Shown one piece after another: positions 10,694 through 32,071 of a DNA stretch of 64,000 bases. Position 1 is the stretch's first letter. Each line of letters starts with the position of its first letter. The position numbers and the translations under genes are program-made. The stretch comes from a virus. Below the pieces are notes generated by a model. That model saw nothing but the letters and a program-made list of their open reading frames with translations, had not been told where the DNA came from and ran no database searches. The DNA is taken from the IMG/VR virus record IMGVR_UViG_3300037247_000847, positions 1 through 64,000 of that record; one strand, 5' to 3'.

Positions 10694-10705
10694 TTTCTCC
10701 TCCTA

Positions 10706-10773
10706 TTGGTTTGTCTCATCAGTGCCAAGATAACCAATCTTGACAGACCTAGGCTACCTGCCTAGGTTTCGAC
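10706..10773 (-). ncRNA. type II hammerhead ribozyme HHR6
   Basis: GTC GAAA CCTAGGC aggta GCCTAG GTC^ TGTCAAGA ttggtta TCTTGGCA CTGATGA GAC aAACCAA; compensatory changes relative to HHR5; cut 10746^10745. Confidence 0.95.
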
Positions 10774-10971
10774 TTATATCATTTCATCACCACCGTCGAT
10801 TCTCTTATAGTTAACTGGGTCATCGGTTTCGAGGGTGTGATACCCAGTAGGTTGTGTCCAAACCATGAAACGCGCCGCTGCGCTGCAGTGAGCTTCCAAC
10901 TCGGTAGCAAAACGTTGAGCATTACCCACTACTTCACCGTTTTGAAATTCAAACATTGGTCGGTACGACAT
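10774..10971 (-). CDS. hypothetical protein
   Basis: AGGAGGA SD; flanked by HHR7 and HHR6. Confidence 0.75.
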   Translation of the reverse strand: MSYRPMFEFQNGEVVGNAQRFATELEAHCSAAARFMVWTQPTGYHTLETDDPVNYKRIDGGDEMI

Positions 10972-12511: not shown

Positions 12512-12524
12512 GGTCTCCTCCTAT

Positions 12525-12601
12525 TAGTCTATCTCATCAGTGTCAGGAGACTATTCCTGACAGACCAGGGTAGGTGATTGCTCACCTACCCTGATTTCGA
12601 T
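12525..12601 (-). ncRNA. type II hammerhead ribozyme HHR9
   Basis: ATC GAAA TCAGGGTAGGTGA gcaa TCACCTACCCTG GTC^ TGTCAGGA atagtc TCCTGACA CTGATGA GAT aGACTA; GNRA loop III; cut 12563^12562. Confidence 0.93.
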
Positions 12602-13020
12602 TTATAGGAGGAGGAGATTTTTTCCCAACCGGGATAGTCCACTTACGAAGTGGAGGGTAACACCCTACGCGCTGCACGTGACCAATTTTCTTGTACTCGT
12701 TCCACCCCGTTGCGGTTCAAAGCGTTATACCACTTGGGGTAGCCATCGGCCTAGGTCCAGTATTGTTGCCCGTTAATGCTGGATTGACTACCAGCGGCGG
12801 TCAGCAGACAACCCGGACTAAGGTCTCTGGGGATCGTTCCACGTGTGCTTACGCAGGTTCACCCGGCTGACAGCGACTTCGCGGGAATTCCTTTCCCATC
12901 GCTGGGCCTCCTGGGGGTTCCGGCTATCCTCGCCACTACGCGTGAGGGGTGAGCTTTGCGCTTCTTCTCCCAGGGCCGCCCCATTCCCAGAGGCCTGGAT
13001 AACTAAATTCTTATCTAACT
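12602..13020 (-). ncRNA. candidate ~420-nt structured leader RNA of the early operon
   Basis: No convincing ORF; GC-rich with many hairpins; lies between a promoter and HHR9. Confidence 0.5.
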
Positions 13021-13142: not shown

Positions 13143-13731
13143 GTCCTAACGAATTTTACCACTTTTTGATGGCAGGCAAAAGCGAGCATATTTCAAAGGC
13201 TTAGAAGCTTTTCGGGCTTTCTATTATCCCTTTGTAACCAGAAAGTGTGGTTATTGTGGTAATTAGTGTGTTCTAACTAATACACTAATAAAACACTAAC
13301 CAGCAAAATCAATGGCTTGTGGTAATAGACCACCCACGTTTAGTATAAAAGCCTACGTGGGGCCTTTGCGTCCTACGTTGTCTCAACCTTCATGTCATCT
13401 TGCGACTGTCAGGGTAGATTTCTCTCCGGAGAGGTCTGCCCTGACTTCTTTTTGATTGCTCGGTGCTGCGGCAGCGGTTAGAGCCGTCCCGAGGGCGGCG
13501 CGCTGTAGGGAAGTCGATCAACCATATTCTAGACAATGCGGTTGCGATGGAGCCGGGGGTTGGTTTCCGGCCTGCAGCACTGAGCAATTCATTAGTAGGG
13601 ACATAAAGAACGTGGTAGCTAGACGGAAGCGATTAAATGGTAATATAGGTAGTACCCTCTCTGTTGTACCCACACGCAATCATTTGACATCAGTAATAGT
13701 CTCTAAATATCCCAACATAGCTAGACGTAGA

Positions 13732-14274
13732 ATGGAGAAGATAAAGTTCAATCTCCCACTCTTGGAGCGTCTAGCTATGTTGGGTATGCCTGATAAGGAC
13801 ATTGCTAAGGCACTAGATATTAAACCAGCCAGGTTTAGTAAATATAAAAAGAAGCACTCTTCTATCAGGGCGACACTGCGGAAGGGTCGAATAATATCAT
13901 CAGCTAATGTAGTGGAGTCTCTCTACAAGAAAGCGAATGGTTTTTCGGTTCCTGAGGAGAAGTTGTTCTATAGTGCCAAGTACAATAGAGTGGTAAGAGC
14001 TAATACCCGAAAGTATTATCCACCTGACACTGTTGCTCAGATATTCTGGCTGAAAAACAACTTCCCAGATTTCTGGCGTGATAAGAAGGAGGTAGAGAAT
14101 ACTGGTGGTGTTGGAACAATTCAATCAGTGAAGTTCATATTGGTTCAGCCAGGAACGTCAGGTGAAAAGAGTGAAAAAGTAATTGATGGAGATTTCAAGA
14201 TACTTCCAGGAGCTGGACAAGAGGGGAGAGAACAGCAAGCTGGGTCTGGTAATACGAGTAAGGAAGTAGAATAA
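13732..14274 (+). CDS. terS: terminase small subunit (HTH type)
   Basis: LAMLGMPDKDIAKALDI HTH, VVESLYKKANG, PPDTVAQIFWLKN motifs; start reassigned to ATG 13732. Confidence 0.8.
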   Translation: MEKIKFNLPLLERLAMLGMPDKDIAKALDIKPARFSKYKKKHSSIRATLRKGRIISSANVVESLYKKANGFSVPEEKLFYSAKYNRVVRANTRKYYPPDTVAQIFWLKNNFPDFWRDKKEVENTGGVGTIQSVKFILVQPGTSGEKSEKVIDGDFKILPGAGQEGREQQAGSGNTSKEVE

Positions 14275-14957
14275 TGGGAGATAACCTAGGACGACGACGT
14301 GAGTTTACTTTTTTACCAGATAGTGAGATTGTTAAGACTATGTCTGAGACTATTTTAGTAGTAGGACAAAAGGCTGCTAACCCACCAGTGATGCCAAAAC
14401 CTGATCGCTTTGCTCTGTCCTTAAAAGTTGTGCGGCGTTGGGAAGGTGGTCTAGTTGATCACCCTTCTGACCCTGGTGGTATTACCAAGTGGGGCATTTC
14501 ACTGCGCTTCCTCCGTGCTATTGGTATTGATATTAACGGTGACGGTGTAATTGATGGTAGAGACATTAGGTCTTTGAATGAGAAGCAGGTTGAGAAGCTC
14601 TATCACGATCACTTCTGGTCAAAGTGTCATTGTGATTTTCTACCTGCTGGTGTTGATCTTGCTGTATTCGATTGTGGAGTGAACCAAGGACCAAACCGTG
14701 CGAAGGGGTTCCTCCAGAAAGCTTTGAAAGTCAAGGTTGATGGAAGAGTTGGTCCTATTACGCTCGCTGCTGTTGATAAGGCTGATCCTGCTGAGTTGTT
14801 GGGTGAGTTCATGGTCAGACGAGCTGTACACTATTCTGGTCTAGTAAACATGACCATATTTGGTCTAGGTTGGTTTAGGAGGATCTTTGATATTTACCGA
14901 GAAGCATTGGCTGTATTGAATACTAGTGATAATTTAACAGAAGAGGTGTTGAAATGA
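14274..14957 (+). CDS. endolysin, glycoside hydrolase family 108 with peptidoglycan-binding domain and a portal-derived N-terminal extension
   Basis: WEGGLVDHPSDPGGITKWGIS, FDCGVNQG, DGRVGPITL, FGLGWFRR. Confidence 0.9.
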   Translation: MGDNLGRRREFTFLPDSEIVKTMSETILVVGQKAANPPVMPKPDRFALSLKVVRRWEGGLVDHPSDPGGITKWGISLRFLRAIGIDINGDGVIDGRDIRSLNEKQVEKLYHDHFWSKCHCDFLPAGVDLAVFDCGVNQGPNRAKGFLQKALKVKVDGRVGPITLAAVDKADPAELLGEFMVRRAVHYSGLVNMTIFGLGWFRRIFDIYREALAVLNTSDNLTEEVLK

Positions 14958-15418
14958 CTATAGTGGATGGAATTGCGCGGGATATTGAGAGTATATTTGA
15001 TAGTATCACATCAGATAGGGAGGGATGGGAGCTAATATCTGCGCTACAAGAGGTTGTCGAGGCCCAGGTGAAAAGGGTCGAGGAGAAGGCGTGCGGTAAA
15101 TTCTCCAATCCAGCGAGTGTGAAGTCCTGCTGTCGAGCTACTGTAGTGAAAATAAAAAAGTTTAGTTGTGCTGAGTTGAGAGAAGGTGACGAGATAGTTT
15201 GTGATGACTGTGATGGGCAGATGGTTTGGCGTGAGGGAGCTTGGAGCGTAAATGATCAACGAAGCCGAGCTATGAGATCTTTTACCTGTGATTATAATAT
15301 TGGTGGTGGAGGTGATCCGTGTTGGGTTCAGAGAGGACAAGAATTTGTTTGGAGCCCTTGGTCGGAGGGTTTTCGCTATTGTGTACCACATTTTAAAGAA
15401 ATCTTAAGTGAAGATTAG
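14954..15418 (+). CDS. Cys-rich hypothetical protein
   Basis: ATGA overlap, GAGG SD, several CxxC-like clusters. Confidence 0.65.
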   Translation: MTIVDGIARDIESIFDSITSDREGWELISALQEVVEAQVKRVEEKACGKFSNPASVKSCCRATVVKIKKFSCAELREGDEIVCDDCDGQMVWREGAWSVNDQRSRAMRSFTCDYNIGGGGDPCWVQRGQEFVWSPWSEGFRYCVPHFKEILSED

Positions 15419-15435
15419 AGTAGGAGAATTGGAAA

Positions 15436-15750
15436 ATGACTGATAAATATATGACAGCAACTGAAGTACAAGTCAGGATGAAGGAATCACTCAAACGTTT
15501 TCCAACTCCTAATTTTAATGGTATAATAAATGATATTGCCAGGAGATTACGACGGATAGCTCTTCAAGATGCATTACAAGGTTCATCTCAAGATCGTTTG
15601 AATTATTGTTTCGGTAGAGCAACTGCAAAACCAATTACTGATTTAGCATGTTATGGTACAGCTGTGTATGATCCAAACAAGCTGAGTGAATTGGCTATCA
15701 GGTGGTTCATACGTCTAGAGCGTTTGGCTCGGGGAAAAACAAAATGTTAG
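15436..15750 (+). CDS. small protein made of portal-like motifs
   Basis: MTATEV..R.KE and DL..YGTAV match the portal at 32072-33757. Confidence 0.7.
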   Translation: MTDKYMTATEVQVRMKESLKRFPTPNFNGIINDIARRLRRIALQDALQGSSQDRLNYCFGRATAKPITDLACYGTAVYDPNKLSELAIRWFIRLERLARGKTKC

Positions 15751-15995
15751 AATTTACTCGTCGAAAGTTTATGTGTTTAACTCCAGTCTCAATTGGGGCA
15801 GTTGCTTTGGGAGCTGTGGTTCTGCCGGAGATCACTCCACCGAAACGTAAAGTTACTGAGGCGATGTTAATCGCTGGTCAAAAGGCTGCTAATCCTCCTT
15901 TAATATATGGGCCAAATACTTTCTCAGGTGGTGTTTCATACACCGACTTTGAAAAGATTGGTGATCAATTGTTCTCTAGGGGAGAACTAGAATAA
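15744..15995 (+). CDS. small protein with twin-arginine-like N-terminus and a portal-like motif
   Basis: TRRKFM plus hydrophobic stretch, then LIAGQKAANPP...NTFSGGVSY.D. Confidence 0.7.
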   Translation: MLEFTRRKFMCLTPVSIGAVALGAVVLPEITPPKRKVTEAMLIAGQKAANPPLIYGPNTFSGGVSYTDFEKIGDQLFSRGELE

Positions 15996-15998
15996 ACA

Positions 15999-17252
15999 AT
16001 GGATCTGAGTATTAAGGTTGCAGAGATATTTAGACCTCTCCTGTCTCCGTCAAGATACAAAGGTGCACACGGCGGACGAGGGTCAGGTAAGAGCCATTTC
16101 TTTGCAGGAACTGCAGTCGCACTCTGTATACAATCTCCTGGGTCTCGCATCGTCTGTGCACGAGAGGTTCAGCGATCATTGAGAGACAGTGTAAAACTTC
16201 TCGTCGAGGACAAGATAAGAGAGTTTGGAGTTGAGAATCATTTCAAGATCATGTACGATCATATCAGAACTCCAGGACAGGGTCTGATCGTCTTTCAGGG
16301 ACTACAGGATCATACAGCAGAGAGTATTAAATCTTTAGAAGGATTTGACGCTGCATATTTAGAAGAGGCTCACACGATCACCAAGAGATCTCTTGAGCTA
16401 CTTCGACCAACGATCCGGAAGCCTGGATCTCAGATATGGGCGTCTTGGAACCCAAGACTAGCGACTGATCCAATCGATACACTGTTGAGAGGAGAGTTCC
16501 CTCCTCCTAGCTCGATTGTCGTCAAGGCAGACTGGAGAGACAATCCCTGGTTCCCTGAGTCTTTAGAGGAGGAGCGATCCTACGACGAGATAGTCAATCC
16601 AGTGCGTTATGCTCATATTTGGGAGGGTGAGTACGAACCACAAGTCGTCGGTGCACTCTGGAACCGAGAGATGATCATAGCAGGGAGGGTGAATGCTCCT
16701 CCTCATCTCAAGAGAGTTGTGATTGGGGTTGACCCTCCTACATCGTCTGAGGAGGATGCAGATGAGTGTGGGATCATTGCTGTAGGTTTAGGTGATGACG
16801 GACATGGTTATGTTCTAGCTGATGAAAGTATTCAAGGTAAACCTGAAACTTGGGCGAGACGTGTTGTAGCTCTCCATGATATACTCGAAGCTAATACTGT
16901 TGTAGCAGAGGTGAATCAGGGTGGGGATATGGTTGAACATACGATTCACTCTGTTAGAAAGGCTGTTAGGGTCATTAAGGTTCGTGCGATTAAAGGTAAG
17001 GTTCTGAGAGCAGAACCTATCAGTGCTCTTTATTCATTAGGGAGAATTCATCACGTTGGATCCTTCCCCAAACTCGAAGGTCAGATGTGTCAGATTACCT
17101 CAGATGGATATCACGGTAATGGATCGCCGGATCGTGTTGATGCTATGGTATATGGATTAACTAATTTGTTTGGACCTATGACGCGTCGTCCTCTCCCTCC
17201 AGGAGCTTCAAGACCTAGTCGAACGGTAGCAAGAGCTGGAATGAGGGTGTGA
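15999..17252 (+). CDS. terL: terminase large subunit (PBSX-like ATPase plus RNase H-like nuclease)
   Basis: HGGRGSGKS Walker A, AYLEEA Walker B, SWNP, IGVDP, EVNQGG, SPDRVDA. Confidence 0.95.
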   Translation: MDLSIKVAEIFRPLLSPSRYKGAHGGRGSGKSHFFAGTAVALCIQSPGSRIVCAREVQRSLRDSVKLLVEDKIREFGVENHFKIMYDHIRTPGQGLIVFQGLQDHTAESIKSLEGFDAAYLEEAHTITKRSLELLRPTIRKPGSQIWASWNPRLATDPIDTLLRGEFPPPSSIVVKADWRDNPWFPESLEEERSYDEIVNPVRYAHIWEGEYEPQVVGALWNREMIIAGRVNAPPHLKRVVIGVDPPTSSEEDADECGIIAVGLGDDGHGYVLADESIQGKPETWARRVVALHDILEANTVVAEVNQGGDMVEHTIHSVRKAVRVIKVRAIKGKVLRAEPISALYSLGRIHHVGSFPKLEGQMCQITSDGYHGNGSPDRVDAMVYGLTNLFGPMTRRPLPPGASRPSRTVARAGMRV

Positions 17253-17453: not shown

Positions 17454-17648
17454 GTGGTGTCAATAGGGAAACGTAGTGGTATGAAGTTTATTGCTGAGGT
17501 AAGTAAGAGGGGTAAGTTGTTAGTGTATGAAGATCTTATTTTTGTTATTCGACCTAATTGTCCTATTTGTGAATTAACTGCTGATGGGCTCAGAGAGATA
17601 AACTATGTGCCTCCAAGCTTACTCGCTCATGTTGAGTATGTGTTATAG
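17454..17648 (+). CDS. small protein with tail-tubular-B-like N-terminal motif
   Basis: GAGGT SD; KRSGMKFIAEV resembles RRPGTRFVAEV of 51701-55324. Confidence 0.55.
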   Translation: MVSIGKRSGMKFIAEVSKRGKLLVYEDLIFVIRPNCPICELTADGLREINYVPPSLLAHVEYVL

Positions 17649-17975: not shown

Positions 17976-18223
17976 AGCCTAGACCTATTTTTAGACCCAC
18001 TAGGACATACTGTAGACCAACTTCTTACCTCAGAATAGGGTATTCGCCCTTGAAGTCGTCGTCGTTGGTCTACGTCATGTCCTAGAGCTGTATAGTTAAT
18101 TGTGGAGTGTAGAGAGCACTTGTGGTTGCGGGATGCTCGTAAGCACGGCGGATGAGGCGGCGTCACTGGCATCGCAGCTTTCGGTTTCGGACGTATCCGA
18201 GTTGTCAGATCCACAGTTACTTC

Positions 18224-18312
18224 AAGTCGTCGTAAGTCGGCGCCACTGGCGTGTTCTGATGTGGTCTGGTCTGGTCAGCCTTGAAGTCGCAAGTCGTCGT
18301 CGCAAGTCGGCA
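18224..18312. repeat. clustered AAGTCG(TCG) repeats
   Basis: AAGTCGTCGTAAGTCGG...AAGTCGCAAGTCGTCGTCGCAAGTCGG in the convergent intergenic region. Confidence 0.55.
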
Positions 18313-18379
18313 CCCTATCCAGGATCCGTATGCGTATAAGAATAACCAGTTAACGTAAGCGACGCGCCAAAATGCGGGC

Positions 18380-18418
18380 AAAGAAAAACCCCACGAAGCT
18401 TTCGCCGCGTGGGGTTTC
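18380..18418 (-). terminator. intrinsic terminator
   Basis: Minus strand GAAACCCCACG cggcgaaagctt CGTGGGGTTTTTCTTT. Confidence 0.8.
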
Positions 18419-18423
18419 AAGGT

Positions 18424-18738
18424 TTAGCCACCTTTCCCTTCATCCATTTCGGCTTTCAGGACGAGGCAGAAGTAGGAAATTGCATCATACCACATTCCGT
18501 AGGTGGTAAGAACCGTTTCCATTTCGACGTTCTTGACGACTTTTCCATCGATGACGTAAACTTCGCGTACCGTAACACGGCCAGGGTCTTCTAGCTTTTC
18601 ACCTTCGACCATTATTAACGCCTGACCTTCTTCAATATCCAGCGGAATATTAGCAAGGCCTGGATCGTTTTCGTAAACTAGCCGTGGTTCGCAATACGGA
18701 TTTTGGATATCAATCATGTAGTAGTATCGGGTTTCCAT
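18424..18738 (-). CDS. acidic hypothetical protein, candidate immediate-early gene
   Basis: AAGGGG SD; followed by a terminator. Confidence 0.7.
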   Translation of the reverse strand: METRYYYMIDIQNPYCEPRLVYENDPGLANIPLDIEEGQALIMVEGEKLEDPGRVTVREVYVIDGKVVKNVEMETVLTTYGMWYDAISYFCLVLKAEMDEGKGG

Positions 18739-18756
18739 AGCGTTTCCCCTTTCGGG

Positions 18757-18786
18757 AAAAGAAGGGGCGGCGCTAACCGCCCCTTC
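18757..18786 (-). terminator. intrinsic terminator/attenuator
   Basis: GAAGGGGCGG ttagcg CCGCCCCTTC TTTT. Confidence 0.75.
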
Positions 18787-18806
18787 AAAGGTTTCGGGGA
18801 AACTAT

Positions 18807-19175
18807 CTAGCTAAGGCTTACCCGACCTTGCGAAATTTGCGCCCGGATAAACTTTCGCCGCCCGCGAAACCCCTTCGCCTTTTGCGCCGCCAAACAAGCG
18901 GAAACCGTTTGGCCGGTTTTGAAACAAGGCGCGCGGGAAGGGATTTCTTTTCCCTTCAATACGCGAAGCTTCGAATCGTTACCAAAATCGGAAAGGGCTT
19001 TTCCGCCGCCGGTACGGACTTTTCCGTTTGTCCTACCGTTAGCCTTAGAAGCCTTGCGACCCTTCGAAGTCTTGCGGGAAGCCTTGGCGGTCCGCTTAAC
19101 GGCCTTGCGGCCCCTTTGCGCCTTTGCCTTCGCCTTGGAAGGCTTGCGGGTTTCGGTTTTGGTTTTGGTAGTCAT
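18807..19175 (-). CDS. Lys/Arg/Ala-rich histone-like protein, candidate immediate-early gene
   Basis: 122-aa ORF after a strong promoter and GAAAGG SD; followed by a terminator. Confidence 0.75.
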   Translation of the reverse strand: MTTKTKTETRKPSKAKAKAQRGRKAVKRTAKASRKTSKGRKASKANGRTNGKVRTGGGKALSDFGNDSKLRVLKGKEIPSRAPCFKTGQTVSACLAAQKAKGFRGRRKFIRAQISQGRVSLS

Positions 19176-19348
19176 AACAAACGCCTTTCGTAAGCCCGAA
19201 AGAAGTACGAAACGCCAAGGCCGGATTAAAACCGGGCAAGGCTTCGCCTTTTGTAACGGGCGGTATCAAATCGGAAATCCGCGGGTTTCGCCTTTGGCCC
19301 TACTACGGGTAAATCGCCGGGTACCTTTGGGCCGATTTGATAAATAAA

Positions 19349-19377
19349 ATACTACGCCCTAATTTGATTTTTTGCAA
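19349..19377 (-). promoter_or_regulatory. sigma70-type promoter
   Basis: TTGCAA-17 nt-TAGTAT. Confidence 0.8.
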
Positions 19378-19460
19378 GGGGATAGTGGATTTATTCGCGT
19401 ATTTTTGACATTTTATCGAAGGCGTATATTCGGGACTTTCGAAAGTTTTCCCTTTAGAAA

Positions 19461-19504
19461 TGGCGTGGCGTGGCCTGGCGTGATGTGGGATGGAATGGCG
19501 TGGA
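19461..19504. repeat. degenerate TGGCG pentamer tandem repeat followed by a G-run; candidate genome-terminus region
   Basis: TGGCG TGGCG TGGCC TGGCG TGATG TGGGA TGGAA TGGCG TGGA, then GGGGGGGCGGG. Confidence 0.6.
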
Positions 19505-19701
19505 TCCGGCCGCGAAAGTCGATGGGGGGGCGGGCTGCACGATGCCTCACTGATTTCCGTCTACCCAAATGCTAATGAAACCATCATCAGAAAACACTCC
19601 TTGGATCATAGTGAAAAGACAACCGCTAAGTCCAAATTTTTTGGAGATCCAGTGATAAGGAGACTGTATACGTCCCTAGGAATAGAATAGGAGCCTAACC
19701 C

Positions 19702-19911
19702 ATGGAACGACAATCAGTGTCTTCGTCCAATCTCTCGTCCGTAGGTTACGACGAGAGTACCGAAACCTTGGAAGTGCAGTTTCAAAATGGCTCTGTGTTT
19801 CAGTATCACGATGTACCGGCAGAAACCCACGGACAGCTAGTAAATGCTAGGTCGGTAGGGAGTTTCTTCAGCAGCAACATAAGAAATTCCTTTGCACACT
19901 CCAAACTCTAA
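19702..19911 (+). CDS. KTSC domain protein
   Basis: VSSSNLSSVGYD...LEVQF.NG..YHDVP...SVGSFF.NIR. Confidence 0.9.
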   Translation: MERQSVSSSNLSSVGYDESTETLEVQFQNGSVFQYHDVPAETHGQLVNARSVGSFFSSNIRNSFAHSKL

Positions 19912-19926
19912 ACACAGGAGATAAAT

Positions 19927-20052
19927 ATGCCACAACATCCAGGTTCCGGGGGACGTCCAAAGCCGAGACCAAAACCTGTCAAGAAACCGAAGCCTTTTTA
20001 TGCAGGTGATTGGGTAGATAAATTAAACGAAGCTATCGTGAAGAAATCATAA
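19927..20052 (+). CDS. 41-aa peptide carrying a major-capsid motif (not in the ORF track)
   Basis: AGGAG SD; MPQHPGSGGRPKPRPKPVKKPKPFYAGDWVDKLNEAIVKKS; TAATG coupling to the next gene. Confidence 0.75.
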   Translation: MPQHPGSGGRPKPRPKPVKKPKPFYAGDWVDKLNEAIVKKS

Positions 20053-20255
20053 TGGCAACAGTAGTCCCCTATAGTGCCAACAAACAACACGTGCGGCTGT
20101 TTGAGGTAGGAGACACCGCACGTGAAGGGCCTCATAAGACATTTACTCTAAACGCCGGTGAGATACCTGGCTACGAGATGGTACGCGAGGTGAGTGACTT
20201 TATTGGTTCTCCTACTGGTGAAGTAACTGGTGTTCTTACAATCACAGCTACGTAA
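20052..20255 (+). CDS. hypothetical protein
   Basis: Translationally coupled ORF. Confidence 0.6.
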   Translation: MATVVPYSANKQHVRLFEVGDTAREGPHKTFTLNAGEIPGYEMVREVSDFIGSPTGEVTGVLTITAT

Positions 20256-20269
20256 ACCTAATTTTTTGT

Positions 20270-20587
20270 ATGAACACTCTTTTTCGCCTGATGACTTTCC
20301 CTGCGGGGGCCTTTTTCATACTGGCCACCTGCGCCACGCCCGCGCTGACCCAGCCCTCACCGCAGACCTGTGACACCCGTGATAGGGTACTGGCTCATCT
20401 GGCCGCCAAGTACGCCGAGGCCCCGGTGGCGATCGGGGTCACCAACAAAGGAGCGTTGGTCGAGGTGTTGGCCACCAGCAACGGCAGCACTTGGACCATC
20501 ATCGTCTCGATGCCGAACGGCACCTCCTGTATAGTCGCCGCCGGCGAGGGCTGGCGCGGCATGGAGCGCGAGGAACCAGCCACGTGA
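20270..20587 (+). CDS. exported small protein with two Cys, of a type common in Alphaproteobacteria
   Basis: Signal peptide; C..R..V...L..KY.E.P...G; G.TWTII...PNG.SC..AAG.GW. Confidence 0.7.
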   Translation: MNTLFRLMTFPAGAFFILATCATPALTQPSPQTCDTRDRVLAHLAAKYAEAPVAIGVTNKGALVEVLATSNGSTWTIIVSMPNGTSCIVAAGEGWRGMEREEPAT

Positions 20588-20648
20588 TGACAGACCGAAT
20601 CAAGATAAAAGACGACGATGAATTCATATTTCCCACTGAGGACCGGGC

Positions 20649-20978
20649 ATGAACGACAAAATGAAGCAATTCGTCAACGGTGGTGCTCCGGCGCGCTTGC
20701 GGCATGTGCTCTCCCTTGCTGGGACGTTGCTCGCTGGAGCATTTGCCGTGGGGATGCTGTGGTCCGACGTGCTGGCGACGGAGAAAAAGGCCAACGATAA
20801 TTCTAAGCGCGTCCAGGCAATCGAAGCGTCTATTAACGAGGTCACGACGCAGCAACGGCTTCTCCTGCAAAGCTCGGAAACCGACCGAGCGCATAGTAAG
20901 GAATTCCGTGATAAGACCGCCCGCACGCTGGAGCGAATCCTCGAGCGATTGCCACGGTCGAATGGGCTACCACGATAA
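20649..20978 (+). CDS. membrane-anchored coiled-coil protein (holin/spanin-like)
   Basis: One TM segment followed by heptads. Confidence 0.5.
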   Translation: MNDKMKQFVNGGAPARLRHVLSLAGTLLAGAFAVGMLWSDVLATEKKANDNSKRVQAIEASINEVTTQQRLLLQSSETDRAHSKEFRDKTARTLERILERLPRSNGLPR

Positions 20979-21011
20979 TTATCCAGTCCAATTTTCACAG
21001 AGGAGATTACC

Positions 21012-21419
21012 ATGCAAAAGCTTTTCTGCGCCCTGGCCCTGTTTCTCCTCCTCGGTGGTTGCGCCACCTTTGAGAAGGGGGTCCTTGTTGCGAGACAGCA
21101 AGTTCTAACGAGCCCCGAGTTTGCAGAGATGACGCTCAAGGATGTGGAGAACGCAGGGAAGCTTGCACTCTTGACAGATGATAAGCTGTCAATCCTATGT
21201 TGGGACTATATCGAAGACTTTGTGAGAACACACGCTCCAGAGGCTGGGGTCGAGACTGGGGAGGTAGTCGGCCCCCTCTCAGCGTATCAGAAGGCTCGAA
21301 ACATCCGTCGCACTGTGGTTGATATTGAAATATCAGACCCCTTCCGAGTAGCTTGTGGTCCAATGCTAACAGACAGTATGTCTATGATTGGTAAGATTGG
21401 GATTAGGATTGCTCTATGA
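21012..21419 (+). CDS. lipoprotein
   Basis: LLLGGC lipobox; AGGAG SD. Confidence 0.75.
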   Translation: MQKLFCALALFLLLGGCATFEKGVLVARQQVLTSPEFAEMTLKDVENAGKLALLTDDKLSILCWDYIEDFVRTHAPEAGVETGEVVGPLSAYQKARNIRRTVVDIEISDPFRVACGPMLTDSMSMIGKIGIRIAL

Positions 21420-22300
21420 TAACTAATCCCGGTGTCTCGATCCGCGATGAATTAGTTTATCACCTGGACCGTAACGGCATGCCCAAGGGTGCCGGCTGGC
21501 ACAAACAGGCTTTCCCTTGGCTGGGGTTGTGTCAGCGAGCTCGTGGTACTGTACCACTCATCCTTGTTCATGGGTTCGGTTACGACCCTTGGGCAGCTAG
21601 TGATGATAACCCACACTATTTACACCAATCTGGTTTCGGCAAAATCTCGACCTTTGGTCTGTGGCGTCGTGACTTGATTCCAGAGCGCGCCGCTATTGGT
21701 TTTGGTTGGTATTCGGTACCTTTCGGTTGGCGGGGGTTATGGGGGTCCATCCGTCATCGTCGATGGAACAGATATAGATGGGCCTGGGACCTTGCTTGGG
21801 GGGCTGGAGGAGTAATGGCGACCATGCTGCGGCGTATGGATGGTCAGGTCGATGTACTGTGTCATTCACTTGGCTCGCGTGTGGTGCTGGCGGCGCTGGC
21901 TCAGGAGAGTGGACTGCCAGTTCGTAATATTCTGTTTATGAATGGGGCTGAATTCGCTAAGCCTGCACGGATTGAAGCGATGACTAATAGCCATATTAGG
22001 TTCGTGAACCTTGTAGTTAAGGAAGATGATGTACTGTCCAAACTCGATACTCACTTTGCGCCGGTATCTGGTCAAGGTCCACCTATTGGTCTCGACGGCT
22101 TGGGTGGTGCAACACCTGAAAACTGGATTGACATCGCGCTTGACGATCCGGAGGTCCAAGTCTGGGGCGCAAGCCACGGTTGGCACCTGCAAGGTGATAA
22201 TCCGAAGCAATATGCTGATCATTGGTTTACTTACAAACATAAGGGTAATCGTGGTCTGATCCGTGCAGCGTTAGATAGTGAGATTTTAAATCCACCCTAA
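21416..22300 (+). CDS. alpha/beta hydrolase (lipase/esterase-like)
   Basis: LVHGF oxyanion motif, CHSLG nucleophile elbow, DDVL, late His. Confidence 0.8.
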   Translation: MITNPGVSIRDELVYHLDRNGMPKGAGWHKQAFPWLGLCQRARGTVPLILVHGFGYDPWAASDDNPHYLHQSGFGKISTFGLWRRDLIPERAAIGFGWYSVPFGWRGLWGSIRHRRWNRYRWAWDLAWGAGGVMATMLRRMDGQVDVLCHSLGSRVVLAALAQESGLPVRNILFMNGAEFAKPARIEAMTNSHIRFVNLVVKEDDVLSKLDTHFAPVSGQGPPIGLDGLGGATPENWIDIALDDPEVQVWGASHGWHLQGDNPKQYADHWFTYKHKGNRGLIRAALDSEILNPP

Positions 22301-22318
22301 CTTTGAGAAGGTGAAACG

Positions 22319-22804
22319 ATGAAAACCTTACTAACCACACTGGTTGCGGTGCTTCTCTTCGCCAGCCCGGCTCATGCGGTGAGTTTCTGGGTGGTTGACA
22401 GCAACTCCGATTACATCGAACTGACCGAAGGCGGCACGACGTTTCGTATCTATCTCGACACTTTGCGCCAGGGCAGTGATGCCTTGCGGGCCGCGGACTT
22501 GATCGAACGGGTTCAGACCTTCACACAGGTCCGCATGAACAAGGCCGGGATTGCCGATCTGGATGAACCCACCCGTATGGTCGATCCCGGTGGGTATGAG
22601 GGTGGGGGCTTTGGTGAAAAGTTCTTCTGGTGCGATGAGGACGGCACGCCCACGCCAGGAGATCAGGAGGTGACCACCCACGTCTGCGCACAGGGCTCGC
22701 TGGTCAGTGATGCTTTTTGGGATGAGGTGGGCCAGATGTTCGTGTTGACGATCCGCAACTCGCGGGATTGCTCGCAAGATGCTACTTTTGTGAGCTGTCA
22801 ATAA
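22319..22804 (+). CDS. signal-peptide protein, paralog of 22807-23187
   Basis: AHA cleavage site; DEPT..VDP...FGEKFFW. Confidence 0.65.
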   Translation: MKTLLTTLVAVLLFASPAHAVSFWVVDSNSDYIELTEGGTTFRIYLDTLRQGSDALRAADLIERVQTFTQVRMNKAGIADLDEPTRMVDPGGYEGGGFGEKFFWCDEDGTPTPGDQEVTTHVCAQGSLVSDAFWDEVGQMFVLTIRNSRDCSQDATFVSCQ

Positions 22805-22806
22805 CG

Positions 22807-23187
22807 ATGCCTAACTCCTGGATTACCAAGTCAGACTCTAACGAAATCCGCCTCGCGCACCCGCACAACCGCGACGGTATGGCCGATGGCGAGCGCGAGC
22901 GCAGCTACGACCTGATTAACGACCCGCGCTTTCAGGACGCGGACAAGACCAAGACTGCGTTGGTGCTCAAGACGCTGTTGCAGGAGGATCTCACGACCCG
23001 GACCCGCTTGCGTGACTTGCCTGACGACGAGCCGACCAAGACTGTCGATCCCGCGCCGCAGTTTGGCGAGCGGTTCTTCTGGGAGGGCCATGGGGCGAAC
23101 CGCGTGGTGGTGTCCCGCTCGACGATTGTTAAGGACTGTGTTTGGCTGGTCGATCACTATCACTTCGAGTTGCGGCGGGCGCGGTAG
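22807..23187 (+). CDS. hypothetical protein, paralog of 22319-22804
   Basis: DEPTKTVDP...FGERFFW; start reassigned to ATG 22807. Confidence 0.65.
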   Translation: MPNSWITKSDSNEIRLAHPHNRDGMADGERERSYDLINDPRFQDADKTKTALVLKTLLQEDLTTRTRLRDLPDDEPTKTVDPAPQFGERFFWEGHGANRVVVSRSTIVKDCVWLVDHYHFELRRAR

Positions 23188-23189
23188 CT

Positions 23190-24341
23190 ATGGCACTCAC
23201 GCTCAATAATTTCACCGGGTTTGAGACGCAGGGCACGGAGGAAGCAGCAAGTGTTGTAAGCAGTCCTGCGGTAGTAACAACTGATCCTCGCTTTGGTGCT
23301 GCGCATTTGGAACTGACTTCAAACTCTGACAGCTATCGACTGCCGTGGGTTATCGGTACTGATGCCGGGAATGATTACATTGTTGGCGTAGCAATAAAGG
23401 CCCCAGATAATACGTCGGGAGTAGGCCCATATGATCTGATAGTAGTTAGAGACAGCGGCCCTGCTACTGTTTTAAGTCTTGCATTCAAAACAGGTAACGA
23501 GATACTGGTCCGTGATGCAACAGGGGCGACAATTCGAACTATAGGCGCCGCACTTTCGACAACGGAATATAAATATTTCGAGATTTATTTTCAACATTCC
23601 GACCCTGGTACAATTGAGGTTTTCATTGATGACGACTCTCAGGGGGAAGATACGGGCCAGGATTTAACAAACGGAAATTCTTTAGATGATACGGGCCGTT
23701 TGTCTTTAGATGGTTCAGATAGCGCCACAATTCGATTCGACGATGTTTACATCCTCTCTGGTGCTACCTCTGCCTCCGACCGCCTTGGCAACTGGGCCGT
23801 AAAAACCAACCAGTCCACCGATGTAGGCGCGACCGACCAGGGCGACACACTGGCGGACGGCACCTGGGCGCTGGTGAGCGAAACACCGGGCAATAGCGGC
23901 ACGTCAAATGATGCACAGTACCAGGACACGGGGAACCTGACGGGTAGTACGATCACGGACGGAGGCGATAGGCCAGGACCGTCAGGCGACAGCGATGTAA
24001 CCGGCGCGACAATCGTGGGCGCAAAGTACATCTCCAACCTGATGCGCGGTGCGGGCGGCGGACGTGAACATAAAATTCTCTACGGCAACAGTGGCGACGG
24101 TGTAACGGCCACGGCCAATCTGGGGTTGACCACAGATTTTATCATCTATGAAGTGCTGTCGGAATCGGCTTCCATCGTACCTACCGAATCCGAATTTATG
24201 CAAATGGGCTTTAGCAAGGACCTCACCGGAGGCCAGGACGTATTTTGCGGCGATCAGTGGGCCATGCTGGGGTATGTGCCGGCATCAGGGATCACTATGC
24301 CGATTTTCGACCACCATTACCGAGCCATGAGGGCTAGATAG
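23190..24341 (+). CDS. beta-rich (lectin/jelly-roll-like) virion accessory protein
   Basis: GFETQ start, YFEIY, IRFDDVYI; T/G/D/S-rich; start reassigned to ATG 23190. Confidence 0.55.
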   Translation: MALTLNNFTGFETQGTEEAASVVSSPAVVTTDPRFGAAHLELTSNSDSYRLPWVIGTDAGNDYIVGVAIKAPDNTSGVGPYDLIVVRDSGPATVLSLAFKTGNEILVRDATGATIRTIGAALSTTEYKYFEIYFQHSDPGTIEVFIDDDSQGEDTGQDLTNGNSLDDTGRLSLDGSDSATIRFDDVYILSGATSASDRLGNWAVKTNQSTDVGATDQGDTLADGTWALVSETPGNSGTSNDAQYQDTGNLTGSTITDGGDRPGPSGDSDVTGATIVGAKYISNLMRGAGGGREHKILYGNSGDGVTATANLGLTTDFIIYEVLSESASIVPTESEFMQMGFSKDLTGGQDVFCGDQWAMLGYVPASGITMPIFDHHYRAMRAR

Positions 24342-25010
24342 ATGCTTTATTTGAAGCAATCAACTGCCAGCCAAGCTGTCCTGATAGGACCATTCATCGA
24401 CGATACGGATGGCAAGACAGCCGAAACGGGCCTAACCATTGCAAACACGGACATTCGCCTGTCTGCCAACGGTGGCAATATGTTCCCCAAGACTTCCGGA
24501 GGCGGTACACACGACGAGGCCGGTTGGTACACCATTACCCTGGATGCGACCGACACGGCCACCGTGGGACGTTTGCAGATCAGCACGGATGTGACGGGTG
24601 CCCTACCAACATGGTCAGAATTTCAGGTAGTCGAACAAGACACGTATGAATTTCTCTATGCTGATGGCGCTACACCGGACGCGGACATTGCGGCCATTTT
24701 GTCAGACACCACGGTGCTGGTTGATACCCGAATTCCCGATACGATCTCACTGGCCAACATTCTTGCAGAGGTCAATACTGCACTGGATACCGCAATCAGT
24801 GAATTGAGTCAGGGTATTCCAACTGCCACGCCGTCTGTTCGAACTGGAATTATGCTGATGTATATGGCTCTGCGGAACAAGCTGGATGTGGCTACGGTAG
24901 CGACCGACACGCTGGAGATACACAGTGATGACGGAACTAGGATTGCACAGAAGCTGTTGACCGATGATGGCTCGGACTATTCCGAGGCCAAGATGATCTC
25001 GGGGGCATAG
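24342..25010 (+). CDS. putative virion fibre/appendage protein
   Basis: IGPFIDDTDGKTAETGLTI, GWYTITLDATDTATVGRL Ig-like start; operon context. Confidence 0.55.
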   Translation: MLYLKQSTASQAVLIGPFIDDTDGKTAETGLTIANTDIRLSANGGNMFPKTSGGGTHDEAGWYTITLDATDTATVGRLQISTDVTGALPTWSEFQVVEQDTYEFLYADGATPDADIAAILSDTTVLVDTRIPDTISLANILAEVNTALDTAISELSQGIPTATPSVRTGIMLMYMALRNKLDVATVATDTLEIHSDDGTRIAQKLLTDDGSDYSEAKMISGA

Positions 25011-25011
25011 C

Positions 25012-25248
25012 ATGGCCCTGGACAGCAAAGAGAAACGCGCGGGCGTGATCGGCGTTGGCCGGCCGTGGATGCGGGACAAGTTCCCGGTCGCAACCCCTGA
25101 CGAGCAGTGGCGGGCCACCACGGGCCTGACCTACGGCGGTAATGCACTGACGCCAGCCGTGGGGCGCGTCATGTCCAGTCTGGCGGGTCATGGGGGCTTG
25201 GCAGGCCATGGCGGCATTGCTGGGCCTGGCGGAGGGCTGGCTGGATGA
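25012..25248 (+). CDS. small protein with Gly-rich C-terminus (AGHGG repeats)
   Basis: Tightly packed ORF. Confidence 0.6.
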   Translation: MALDSKEKRAGVIGVGRPWMRDKFPVATPDEQWRATTGLTYGGNALTPAVGRVMSSLAGHGGLAGHGGIAGPGGGLAG

Positions 25249-28200
25249 GTCTTGACCGGGTAAAGGGAGACACGTTCACCTTTCGGTTCACCACGCGCGC
25301 TTTCGCAACGGGGATGCCGACAGTGTTGGCTGGCAGTCCCGTGCTGTCAGCGATGGAGGACGCGGTCGACACGCCGTTCACCACGGGCGTCAGCTTCACC
25401 GCGAGTTCGGTGGCGGGTTTGAATCTTTGCACGATTGACAGCAGCCAGGCGGATTTCGAGGCCGGCAAGGAATATGACGTTTACCTTTCCGCCGGTACGG
25501 TCGATAGCGTCTCGGTTATTGGGGAAGTGGTGGGGCATTTCTCACTATCTCGTGAAGCCGCCGCAGTAGACCTGGCCAATGGTACTGATGGCCTTAGCGC
25601 GCTGAAAACTATCGTGGACGCGATCCAGACCGTAACAAATAAGTTTGCCTTTACGGTAGCGAACCAAGTTGATTGCAACCTTTTAAGGTGGATTGGCGTA
25701 GCTCCAGCAGCCTTGGTCACTCAAAAAGTCCAGACGGATGTAGCAGCCATTTCGGGGGATATCAATGCGGCGAATGTTCTAGGAGATTGGCTGAACCGGG
25801 GCAAAATATCCACGGCGGATGCTGGGGGATCAACTACTACCTTAGTAGATACGGCGCTTGGTGCAGGAGTGGATGATAAGTGGAATGGTATGCTACTGCT
25901 GTTTACCAGTGGAAGCAATCTTAACTATACAGCCATTACCACCGATTATGATAGTGCTTCGGCCACTCTTACCTTCACGCCCGCTGTGCCGTTTGCTGTG
26001 ACGGGGGGGACATACGTTCTCGTTCCAGGGTTGAGTTGGTCTGATCTTCAGGCCGCGCTTGGTGACGTGCAGAGTGTGACCGACCTCAAGGACTTCGCCG
26101 ACGCCGGATATGACCCAGGGAGCAATAAGATAACGGGATGTACCCTTACGGATACTGTTACTACAGTCACCAATCAACTCTCAGCGGCGACTATCGGAAA
26201 CCAAGTGTGGGACACGGATGCAACAGGTCGCCAGTCTGCCGGCACATTTGGTCAAGCGATTGGAGACCCAGGCGCGAACGCGGAAACGATGTACGATGCT
26301 GTTGTGACCGATGCCGCCGGAACCAATATCGCGGCGGATATCATCGTGATCGAGGGTCAAACCGATGATATAGGTGTCGCGGGCGCTGGCTTGACAGACC
26401 TCGGCGGAATGTCTGACGGGATGAAGGCCGAGGTAGAGAGTGAGGCCAATGATGCCTTGGTTGCTCAGAAGCTCGACCACCTTGTCGCTGTTGCGGAAAA
26501 TGATGATCCCGTAGACGACAGTATCTTTGCCAAGATCGCCGATGCAGGAACGGGAACATCCGATTGGTCGGCGTTTATACCTGCCGAGGACAGCTTACGT
26601 GCCATTAGCGAGCAAGTAAGGAACGTCGGTTCTGGTGCTGCCGGTGCTGTCAACATCGAGGCCATTGAAGACAACTCTGGCGGTGCCATTATTGACGGCG
26701 TGGTTAAGGTTGGCACAATCACAGGGGATTTCAATAATCTCGACGCAGAGGACGGCTCTATTGTCTCAATTCTCCACGATAACGATGTCATTGATTATGT
26801 CGTTGGTTATCAAGTCGGGGGCAGCAGAACGGCGACGTTCGCTTCTGTTACAGTGAACGTAAATGGCAATAATGATGAAATCGCAGTCAAGGCTTTCGAT
26901 CATGTATCAACTTGGGACGTTATTGGTATTGTTGATGGAAGCGGCGGTTCGACTTATCAAAATGAGAATTTCCCGCTCTTGGTTAAACACACTGGCACCG
27001 GTGCTGAACTAGGCAAGGTTTACATTCGTTATGCTACAGATACGACTACGCCAGCGCTCCTAGAAATTGACAAGGGCCTGGTGCTTGCCACTAACATTGG
27101 ACAATCTTCCGGCTATGCCAACGGCCAGATATGGGTAGATACTGTTTCTGGTGTCGCCGGGACAGAGGCTTATGTCAATGGAACGGCGGATAATCCTGTA
27201 CGGACCTGGGCGGACGCTCTGACCCTTTCGGCTGCTGTAGGTCTTACGGATTTCCACATCATCAACGGATCGACAATTCAACTGTCCGCCAACAGCGATA
27301 ATCATTCTCTGTTTGGTGATAATTGGATATTAGATTTGAACACCCAATCGGTGGATGGCGCGCATTTTGCCGGTGCCATTGTGAGTGGCACATTTACAGG
27401 GACACCTGAATTTTCTCATTGCGAGATTAACGCCCTTACCGGCCCATCGGCACATCTTGATGATTGCGCGCTGAATAATACGATCACGGCGAACGCCGTG
27501 GGTGATTGGGTATTTCATGATTCCAAATCGAATATCGCTGGGCCAACCACGCCGATATTTGATTTTGGCACCGATGTTGGCGTATCGTCGAATGTGATTT
27601 TCGCAGATCATCAGAACGGGATTGAATTTAGAAATTACAACAATTCAGGGACTGATCTTTTAAGTCTTTCTGGAGTAGGGCAGGTAATCTATGCGGCTTC
27701 GAGCAGTGGATCGGTTCAGCAACGGGGTGACTGGAAGGTTACCAACACTGGCGGCGTGACGATTGTCGAGGACGATAACACGGCCAATCTGGCGGCGGTG
27801 TTGGTTGACACCATCGAGATTGGAACAGCCGGTGCCGGTCTGACTGATCTTGGCGGCATGTCAGACGGCATGAAAGCGGAAGTCGAATCGGAAGCCAATG
27901 ACGCGCTGGTCGCTCAGAAGCTCGATCACCTGGTTGCGGCGGCAGACGGCGACGACCCGGTTAATGGTTCGATCATGTCACACATTGTCTCGGTGACCGA
28001 GGACTGGAGCACGTTTGTTCCGAGCACTGATTCCTTGCAGGCCTTGAGGGACCGTGGCGATGCGGCTTGGATTACGGCAACTGGCTTCTCAACACATAAT
28101 GCCGCGGCTGTTTGGTCGGTTGCTACGCGAGCCTTGACCGACAAGGTGGGATTCTCACTCTCGACGGCCGGCATTTTGGCAATTTGGCACCAGGCCGTAA

Positions 28201-29384
28201 GTGCCATCGTGACTGCGGGAACCATCGGGAAACTACTCATAGACGAAATCACCTCCGCTCGCATGGCGACGCTGACAGACTGGATCAACGGTGGAAGGCT
28301 AGATACTATCCTCGATGCTCGCATGGCCGAAGCCTCGATCAGCACGACGGGGGGTGCTGTCGATACGGTAACCAGTGTGACCAACGATGTTGGTATTACG
28401 GCCGCAGCAGTAGACGATATCTGGGATGAGGTACTTTCCATGGCGGCCCACAACGGCGCACAATCCGCTGGTAAGCGTTTGCGGCAAATCAGTACGTCCA
28501 TCACGATAGATGGCACGGTCAACGATGCTTCGGCCTCGACGACGGCATTCGATACGGATTTGACGGGCGCCGACGATTTTTGGAATGACGCTTTAATAAT
28601 CTTTACTTCCGGGGCGCTTGCAGGTCAATCCAGGCCAATACTCACTTATGTAAATGCCAGCGGCCGGATAACGGTTGATGAGGCGTTGACGTCGGCCCCG
28701 GCGAATGGTGTAGAGTTTGTTATCGAGTCTACCCATATTCATCCAATCGCGCAAATCACTGCCGGTGTTTTGGCGGGTAGTCTGTCGAGCGAGACGACAG
28801 CCGGGACGCTTAGTAAGGCAATCTCGGATATTGAAACCGACACAGCGGAGATTGGCACGGCGGGGGCGGGTCTGAGCAACATTGACCTCCCCGATCAAAC
28901 GATGGACATAACCGGCAGTCTTTCCGGATCGGTCGGTAGTGTGACGGGAGCAGTAGGTTCGGTGGCGGGCAATGTCGATGGCAACGTGACGGGCTCTGTC
29001 GGATCGTTGGCGGCGCAAGCCAAAGCTGATGTCCAGGCCGAAGTTGATACATCCTTGGCAAGCTATGACGGTCCGACTAATGCCGAGATGGAAGCCCGCA
29101 CCCTCGACGCTGGCCCGCTTGCCCAGCTTAGCCAGAATCTTGACAACTGTTTAACGGGCACCGCGTCCGGCACGCCGACGACCACCACCATGGTTTCGGA
29201 TATTGGGGTGACGGTGGACGATCAATTCAACGGTCGTATCATCACCTTCGATGACGATACGACGACAGCGGCGCTCCGGGAGCAGTCCACGGACATAACC
29301 GGGTGTACGGCATCCAGTAACACCCTGACCTTTACCGCGCTGACCACCGCTCCGGTTAGTGGTGACACGTTTGTAATTACCTGA
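25245..29384 (+). CDS. 1379-aa acidic A/D/T/G-rich modular fibre-like structural protein
   Basis: Internal ~40-aa duplication; three DD.(W/F)N...FT modules; fibre-like composition. Confidence 0.65.
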   Translation: MSLDRVKGDTFTFRFTTRAFATGMPTVLAGSPVLSAMEDAVDTPFTTGVSFTASSVAGLNLCTIDSSQADFEAGKEYDVYLSAGTVDSVSVIGEVVGHFSLSREAAAVDLANGTDGLSALKTIVDAIQTVTNKFAFTVANQVDCNLLRWIGVAPAALVTQKVQTDVAAISGDINAANVLGDWLNRGKISTADAGGSTTTLVDTALGAGVDDKWNGMLLLFTSGSNLNYTAITTDYDSASATLTFTPAVPFAVTGGTYVLVPGLSWSDLQAALGDVQSVTDLKDFADAGYDPGSNKITGCTLTDTVTTVTNQLSAATIGNQVWDTDATGRQSAGTFGQAIGDPGANAETMYDAVVTDAAGTNIAADIIVIEGQTDDIGVAGAGLTDLGGMSDGMKAEVESEANDALVAQKLDHLVAVAENDDPVDDSIFAKIADAGTGTSDWSAFIPAEDSLRAISEQVRNVGSGAAGAVNIEAIEDNSGGAIIDGVVKVGTITGDFNNLDAEDGSIVSILHDNDVIDYVVGYQVGGSRTATFASVTVNVNGNNDEIAVKAFDHVSTWDVIGIVDGSGGSTYQNENFPLLVKHTGTGAELGKVYIRYATDTTTPALLEIDKGLVLATNIGQSSGYANGQIWVDTVSGVAGTEAYVNGTADNPVRTWADALTLSAAVGLTDFHIINGSTIQLSANSDNHSLFGDNWILDLNTQSVDGAHFAGAIVSGTFTGTPEFSHCEINALTGPSAHLDDCALNNTITANAVGDWVFHDSKSNIAGPTTPIFDFGTDVGVSSNVIFADHQNGIEFRNYNNSGTDLLSLSGVGQVIYAASSSGSVQQRGDWKVTNTGGVTIVEDDNTANLAAVLVDTIEIGTAGAGLTDLGGMSDGMKAEVESEANDALVAQKLDHLVAAADGDDPVNGSIMSHIVSVTEDWSTFVPSTDSLQALRDRGDAAWITATGFSTHNAAAVWSVATRALTDKVGFSLSTAGILAIWHQAVSAIVTAGTIGKLLIDEITSARMATLTDWINGGRLDTILDARMAEASISTTGGAVDTVTSVTNDVGITAAAVDDIWDEVLSMAAHNGAQSAGKRLRQISTSITIDGTVNDASASTTAFDTDLTGADDFWNDALIIFTSGALAGQSRPILTYVNASGRITVDEALTSAPANGVEFVIESTHIHPIAQITAGVLAGSLSSETTAGTLSKAISDIETDTAEIGTAGAGLSNIDLPDQTMDITGSLSGSVGSVTGAVGSVAGNVDGNVTGSVGSLAAQAKADVQAEVDTSLASYDGPTNAEMEARTLDAGPLAQLSQNLDNCLTGTASGTPTTTTMVSDIGVTVDDQFNGRIITFDDDTTTAALREQSTDITGCTASSNTLTFTALTTAPVSGDTFVIT

Positions 29385-29545
29385 TGGCAATTTCCGCAGC
29401 ACGTGTTACTCGGTTAGGTATGAGTGGGTACATGACCAAGCCTTACGGTAGTTTTGCGGGGAAGACACCCACCGTTCCACCGCTAGCTGTTGTGCAACGT
29501 ATCCGTGGCTTTACACGTAATATCGGAAGACTTATGAACCCATGA
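29384..29545 (+). CDS. 53-aa protein MAISAARVTRLG... (not in the ORF track)
   Basis: TGATG overlap with the upstream gene; fills the gap exactly. Confidence 0.65.
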   Translation: MAISAARVTRLGMSGYMTKPYGSFAGKTPTVPPLAVVQRIRGFTRNIGRLMNP

Positions 29546-29557
29546 TGGGAGACTAAC

Positions 29558-29854
29558 ATGGCTACACTCTTTTTCACAGTGTTTTTGGGAGCAGTTGAGA
29601 CTGCTAGTGGTGATCCAATCCAGGAGGATAAGGTTACTATTGGAGCGGGTTCACTTCAGTCGACTGTTATAGATGGAACTGGTAGGAAACGTCGACGTGT
29701 ACGGGTCTTTGCTGATACGAACTGTTTTGCGACGTGGGGGGAGAGCCCGACTGCAAAGGACGATGGCACTGCCGGACGCGCATTGGAAGCTGGTTCTGCT
29801 GAATACTTTGATATTGAGGCAGGTCACAAGATTGCTGTCATTGAGCGTACCTAA
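29558..29854 (+). CDS. small beta-sandwich structural protein
   Basis: VRVFADTNCF..WGESPTA...LEAGSAEYF pattern; GGAG SD. Confidence 0.6.
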   Translation: MATLFFTVFLGAVETASGDPIQEDKVTIGAGSLQSTVIDGTGRKRRRVRVFADTNCFATWGESPTAKDDGTAGRALEAGSAEYFDIEAGHKIAVIERT

Positions 29855-29880
29855 TTGGTTAATATGGAGGAACATGTAAA

Positions 29881-32067: not shown

Positions 32068-32071
32068 AATA

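Follow-up and report, generated by a model that had tools for sequence, protein, structure and literature searches.

A small protein encoded between the terminase genes of a sediment phage probably joins a portal-like N-terminal helix to the core of an unannotated protein family

ORF104, a 104-residue protein encoded between the two terminase genes of this virus, comes from a real small phage gene under moderate constraint, and is probably a chimera of a portal-like N-terminal helix and the core of a stand-alone small-protein family, carried in a recombination-prone cassette. An earlier note, made from the sequence alone, had described it as a scrambled mini-portal. The ORF and every motif string quoted in that note are present in the sequence; because only the first ~25 residues resemble the portal, however, a two-part chimera describes the protein better. 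The window, i.e. the whole 64,000-nucleotide stretch analyzed here, covers the opening 64 kb of a virus record that measures 95,947 bp and carries direct terminal repeats, and the gene and its parts lie within it as follows:

15436–15750, plus strand: ORF104, a protein of 104 aa (pI 9.95) predicted to form four helices and devoid of membrane segments
15422–15426, plus strand: AGGAG ribosome-binding site of ORF104, 9 nt 5' of the ATG, read from the sequence
15451–15501, plus strand: ORF104 N-terminal helix, residues 6 to 22, MTATEV..R.KE, resembling the start of the portal long helix after the tunnel loop
15520–15738, plus strand: ORF104 core domain, residues 29 to 101, belonging to a widespread unannotated ~80-aa family

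The reality of the gene is supported by its 17 homologs (60–74% identity), by pairwise dN/dS values of 0.2 to 0.7 across seven loci, by the ribosome-binding site, and by a Logan assembly, made independently from what is probably the source run, that spans positions 13763–15683 and 15654–16339 with zero differences from the window. Structurally, the AlphaFold2 model built from an 18-sequence alignment (mean pLDDT 82.7) comprises helices at residues 8 to 21, 28 to 48, 51 to 73 and 80 to 103. The maximum 19-residue Kyte-Doolittle hydropathy is 0.39, and the protein lacks the membrane segment or lipoprotein signal expected of a holin or spanin.

Residues ~29 to 101 of ORF104 constitute a three-helix, arginine-rich domain that is common elsewhere as a stand-alone protein of ~80 aa. 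A profile seeded from ORF104 and its 17 close homologs, compared by HMMER with 1.84 billion representative proteins, returned 73 matches, all of them small (46–175 aa) and most aligned only to ORF104 residues 30 to 101, with no portal-length protein among them. The core profile reaches members down to ~25% identity, with E-values as low as 1e-17, and its consensus reads R..RR..L..AL.G...DR..YC..RA....L..YG....WF.RLER. The ORF104 core matches this profile over its full length, including the R..RR, DR..YC..RA, YG and WF.RLER motifs, and its residues W90, R93 and L94 are conserved residues of the small family itself. When ORF104 and 41 family members were scanned with Pfam and PHROG, nothing usable emerged. 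Likewise, tblastn with ORF104 or its homolog P0025 found zero matches among GenBank phages, the ESM Atlas offered no usable lead for the core family, IMG/VR scans with the queries A1, A6 and P0029 found no relatives, and a scan of 80 viral loci anchored on TerL with the core HMM brought up no family member. For the four-helix model, the matches listed by Foldseek (PDB, BFVD) and by VIA-align wide were generic helical hairpins only (Z<6) and included no portal, small helical models being poorly discriminated in such comparisons.

Since the family alignment shows both SQDRL..YC..YGTAV and FIRLE conserved, these stretches are the small family's own core, and this bears directly on the mini-portal proposal, according to which the whole of ORF104 would be a mosaic of at least three conserved portal epitopes in rearranged order. 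The comparison is with the virus's own portal:

32057–33757, plus strand: resident T7-type portal, 566 aa (PF12236, E=2e-107; PDB 8CK0, E=3e-49)

All three proposed motif pairs exist, the best gapped alignment of the core to the portal has a composition-shuffle p of 0.0035, and the portal ranks first among the window ORFs for the core-family HMM, at a non-significant 0.9 bits (E ~1.5). Taken together, the shuffle value and the first rank are at most a weak hint of a similarity that may be due to chance. In the other direction, the ORF104 core scores −2 bits against the portal HMM, which is noise level, so that the core-to-portal scores range from −2 to +0.9 bits (E ~1–3), and hhalign of the core against the portal reported nothing. 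Aligning SQDRL...YGTAV with portal residues 111 to 145 requires a 7-residue gap and yields a tblastn E-value of 5, while FIRLE and its supposed counterpart FGRLE (portal residue 409) were aligned by no tool. The SQDRL..ACY stretch occupies one continuous helix in the ORF104 model, whereas the corresponding part of the portal model is, at low confidence, a helix-loop-helix-strand; the portal monomer was modelled at low quality (pLDDT 55), and nothing but the succession of its secondary-structure elements was taken from that model. Furthermore, the core motifs are conserved in ~70 stand-alone small proteins. Two of the three motifs thus belong to an unrelated ~80-aa family, the link to the portal is N-terminal only, and the portal pieces that are supported are collinear (see below), which is why the scrambled-mosaic proposal is not supported. 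We consider it largely refuted and highly improbable.

What survives of the proposed portal connection is a portal-derived N-terminal piece, and the similarity is confined to it. Of the three portal-like motifs, MTATEV alone is borne out by profile comparison, its counterpart being located in the portal gene:

33212–33277, plus strand: portal residues 386 to 407, where the tunnel loop ends and the long helix begins; the ORF104 N-terminal helix corresponds to this piece

The N-terminal helix MTATEVQVRMKE matches the start of the portal long helix after the tunnel loop, with MTATEV at ORF104 residue 6 and portal residue 389. In the local HMM alignment, which favors the portal for the N-terminus and places the core at noise, ORF104 residues 3 to 22 align with portal HMM positions 365 to 386 at 13.7 bits (E=0.004–0.008 among 9,321 ORFs). 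These ORFs, a control set from 95 loci, contain no unrelated short ORF scoring above 4.1 bits; the HMM itself is shallow, built from seven sequences including the resident portal. All seven ORF104 orthologs score 5 to 13.7 bits, against the background maximum of 4.1. An hhalign comparison of the ORF104 N-terminus with the portal gives E=0.01 (probability 4%), pairwise BLASTP of the MTATEV region gives E=0.096, and a 6-mer in common between ORF104 and the portal arises in 0.3% of shuffles. The portal long-helix motif MTATEV..R.EE is therefore recovered at the ORF104 N-terminus by both the portal HMM and hhalign; Pfam PF12236 returns no match to ORF104 even at E≤10 (gathering score 27 bits). All 18 ORF104 homologs share the residues T7, A8, T9, E10, R14 and E17, and these invariant positions fall opposite the portal's own invariants A391, E393 and R397. 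In another possible alignment, also collinear, residues 6 to 30 of ORF104 fall on portal residues 298 to 327.

At the level of sequence, the N-terminal similarity to the portal is real but short (~20 residues) and thinly supported. TATEV-type N-termini are found in family members down to 27% identity, and for this reason the TATE motif of ORF104 may be old and convergent instead of copied. Its invariance in ORF104 indicates that the motif is probably functional, and suggests that ORF104 might use its N-terminal helix for the same contact that the portal makes with it.

Close homologs of ORF104 add a second portal segment, which is absent from the window's ORF104 and corresponds to the following part of the resident gene:

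32870–32926, plus strand: portal residues 272 to 290, which directly precede MTATEV in five ORF104 homologs

In these five homologs (P0002, P0008, P0011, P0021 and the ORF of the relative L001), an extension of 21 to 24 residues lies directly upstream of MTATEV; the P0002 and L001 versions include GEVYGRSPGMIALPD, which agrees at 15/15 positions with residues 277 to 291 of the window's portal. The extension matches portal residues 269 to 291 by hhalign (E=3e-6) and scores 20.9 to 22.7 bits against the local portal HMM, and an extension-bearing homolog matches Pfam PF12236 at E=8e-4, the best score of 18.4 bits lying below the 27-bit gathering score. Two portal-HMM domains, 255–275 and 367–387, abut in these proteins. 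Portal residues 272 to 290 are thus followed directly by 386 to 407, with the portal order kept and the stem-clip-stem region (~291–385) missing. This contradicts the earlier claim that the motif order is scrambled relative to the portal, as the two supported portal pieces are collinear. At the DNA level, the L001 extension is 69 nt long and is bordered by a 21-nt direct repeat. The extension-bearing homologs are scattered on a poorly resolved tree, in which L001 adjoins an extension-less twin. All five extensions have one common junction and two of the five have diverged, which favors an old insertion; a single such event followed by repeated slippage losses would be the simplest history.

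In the resulting model, ORF104, the one gene always present between terS and terL in a group of related marine-sediment phages whose portal is of the T7 type, would be a chimera of two parts. Residues ~1 to 28 would be an added N-terminal helix, whose conserved TATE..R..E would copy the start of the portal long helix after the tunnel loop. The five homologs probably preserve the ancestral form, in which portal residues 272 to 290 would stand directly before this helix, so that the ancestral N-terminal ~45 residues would be a collinear portal fragment without stem-clip-stem (291–385). The window's ORF104 would then have lost the first portal piece, most simply through slippage between the 21-nt direct repeats.

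Alternatively, ORF104 might have no portal ancestry, the TATEV likeness being due to chance or convergence and the GEVYGRSPGMIALPD extension being a later patch guided by microhomology. The occurrence of TATEV N-termini in distant members without the extension, the lack of the extension in the window's own ORF104, the absent Pfam match and the marginal BLASTP value all fit such an origin. It accounts less well for the shared junction and the divergence of the extensions, for an HMM match far above the empirical null, and for the coincidence of invariant residues in ORF104 and the portal. We therefore hold an origin apart from the portal to be fairly unlikely, and retain the chimera of a portal-like helix and a family core.

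The genomic setting of ORF104 is defined by the terminase genes and by two further copies of portal sequence:

13456–14274, plus strand: small terminase subunit (terS), phrog_309, E=9e-39
15999–17252, plus strand: large terminase subunit (terL), PF04466, PF17289 and phrog_3717
14277–14453, plus strand: in-frame copy of portal residues 277 to 332 at the N-terminus of a GH108 lysin (ORF 14274–14957), tblastn E=2e-7
15810–15953, plus strand: in-frame copy of portal residues 285 to 338 in the C-terminal half of ORF97, tblastn E=9e-6

The true start of terS is probably ~50 codons downstream of the listed TTG; its ortholog in locus L088 has 220 aa. ORF104 is the sole constant gene between terS and terL (7/7 loci). 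It is the only occupant of the slot in L086 (terS-ORF104-terL), and in the relative L005, terS overlaps terL directly and the portal follows 2.5 kb downstream. The GH108 lysin, ORF154 and ORF97 come and go, and L088 and L089 encode membrane/coiled-coil ORFs: the terS-terL slot doubles as a lysis cassette. ORF97 is likely encoded at 15744–15995 and has one membrane or Tat-like segment, as judged from hydropathy and a Pfam Tat-signal hint. ORF154 (14954–15418) is acidic, with nine cysteines and no Pfam or PHROG match; it is absent from L001, and its region is skipped in contigs from other samples (~504–524 nt). The ORFs between ORF104 and terL in L088 (2275–2580) and L089 (1287–1616 and 1631–1942) include membrane-anchored coiled-coil proteins of spanin- or holin-like character in both loci and, in L089, an additional Tat-signal ORF.

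The portal copies are themselves variable. Within the lysin patch, the core at 14314–14387 is close to portal DNA and its last ~50 nt (14338–14387) are nearly identical to it, and contig loose ends at 14314 and 14387 continue as portal sequence. L088 and L089 have the patch as well, L085 and L087 lack it, and L001 has unrelated DNA in its place; these alternatives also appear among contigs from other samples. Its divergence is not above that of the lysin body. The ORF97 copy differs from the resident portal gene mostly at synonymous sites. The portal 277–338 segment occurs in exactly three copies in the whole 96-kb genome, the portal's own included, and the patches vary among genomes that are 83–95% identical in their flanks. 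The terS-terL cassette would accordingly be a recombination hot spot, with in-frame pieces of portal residues 272 to 338 captured in three genes. The replacement in L001 (positions 236–448, ~200 nt) encodes a 70-aa ORF with a zinc-ribbon-like CxxC...C..H pattern. L001 itself is a near-identical locus binned in a Chlamydiae MAG; among 400 genomes of the MAG's phylum, a match was found in this MAG alone. An Rfam scan of the 13–17 kb interval found no intron-like RNA.

Several observations concern other parts of the window. A small ORF at 19927–20052 contains FYAGDWVDKLNEA (19996–20034), which matches major capsid residues 93 to 105 with 12/13 identities (E=0.016); its DNA differs from the capsid gene at ~8 positions, nearly all synonymous. 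The minus strand carries two type II hammerhead ribozymes (10705–10774 and 12523–12602; 40.6 and 40.8 bits, above the Rfam gathering threshold). Positions 18000–30000 have a G+C content of 0.50–0.56 versus 0.43–0.45 in the flanks, and the TerL-to-portal distance is 15 kb in the window versus 2.5 kb in L005; both features suggest a large insertion in this region, including a 1379-aa ORF without a PHROG match. A tail-tubular-B motif was not detected at 17454–17648 at E≤5.

Recurrent portal pieces in one cassette raise the question of functional mimicry, in which the portal-like peptides of ORF104, the lysin and ORF97, together with the capsid-like peptide at 19996–20034, would be selected as such; they could serve as decoys that divert host sensors recognizing virion proteins, or could dock or compete at the portal vertex. 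Consistent with selection, every copy keeps the reading frame and the sense orientation, most differences that separate the ORF97 and capsid-like copies from the resident genes are synonymous, MTATE is invariant in ORF104, and the lysin patch has diverged no further than the lysin body. Host sensors recognizing phage portal and capsid are also documented (bioRxiv 10.64898/2026.01.04.697583). The patches are nevertheless dispensable, being absent or replaced in close relatives, and the literature searched yielded no such decoy. Moreover, in-frame, sense capture is partly expected, because inserts in the native frame are the likeliest to stay stop-free, and a synonymous bias can also come from the donor gene of a related phage or from gene conversion. 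For these reasons, neutral patching ranks above selected mimicry for the patches of ORF104's neighbors, and mimicry is in our estimation unlikely. The same low standing applies to the more specific proposal that the cassette proteins deliberately display short conserved portal (and capsid) peptides, the TATE..R..E helix being one such display. If this doubtful proposal were true, the displayed peptides would be mimics, for example blunting host sensors of virion-protein motifs or competing at portal subunit interfaces.

For annotation, a defined two-part architecture replaces the label ‘mini-portal’. An unannotated small-protein family is delineated, and ORF104 is identified as the conserved terS-terL occupant in a clade of large sediment phages. 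Its function could, very tentatively, be that of a basic helical accessory protein of the packaging or late module. A 70-residue portal region has been captured repeatedly and in frame by three adjacent genes, in a pattern that varies between near-identical genomes; this is either a clear case in nature of patch-wise recombination giving rise to chimeric ORFs in a phage or, with lower likelihood, a sign that peptides mimic virion proteins.

Compared with known systems, ORF104 stands closest over most of its length to the unnamed ~80-aa family (73 clusters at 50% identity, without a Pfam or PHROG match), which aligns in full length to residues 29 to 101 and shares the invariant or near-invariant R36, R40, L43, G49, Y57, R61, G74, R93 and L94. 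Unlike ORF104, most members lack the N-terminal helix, and annotated context is absent from all of them. With the T7-type portal (PF12236; nearest solved structure PDB 8CK0), the ~20 N-terminal residues share the M-T-A-T-E-V..R..E helix start, and some homologs carry portal residues 272 to 290 verbatim. However, T7-type portals have ~500–700 aa with wing, stem, clip and crown (~550 aa in the direct comparison), whereas ORF104 has 104 aa and none of these parts, no Pfam match and no portal among its listed fold matches, and ~75% of its length from another family. In T7-like phages, the 18.5/18.7 spanin genes lie between gene 18 and gene 19. ORF104 occupies the same genomic slot, which here additionally holds the GH108 lysin and membrane/coiled-coil ORFs; in contrast to the spanins, it has no membrane segment or signal peptide, and it persists where lysis genes are absent (L086). 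Finally, the short, sharp-edged variable patches, one of them bordered by a 21-nt repeat, resemble the phage mosaicism produced by illegitimate recombination or gene conversion, but differ from it in that one 70-residue region of one essential gene has been captured repeatedly, in frame, in three neighboring genes.
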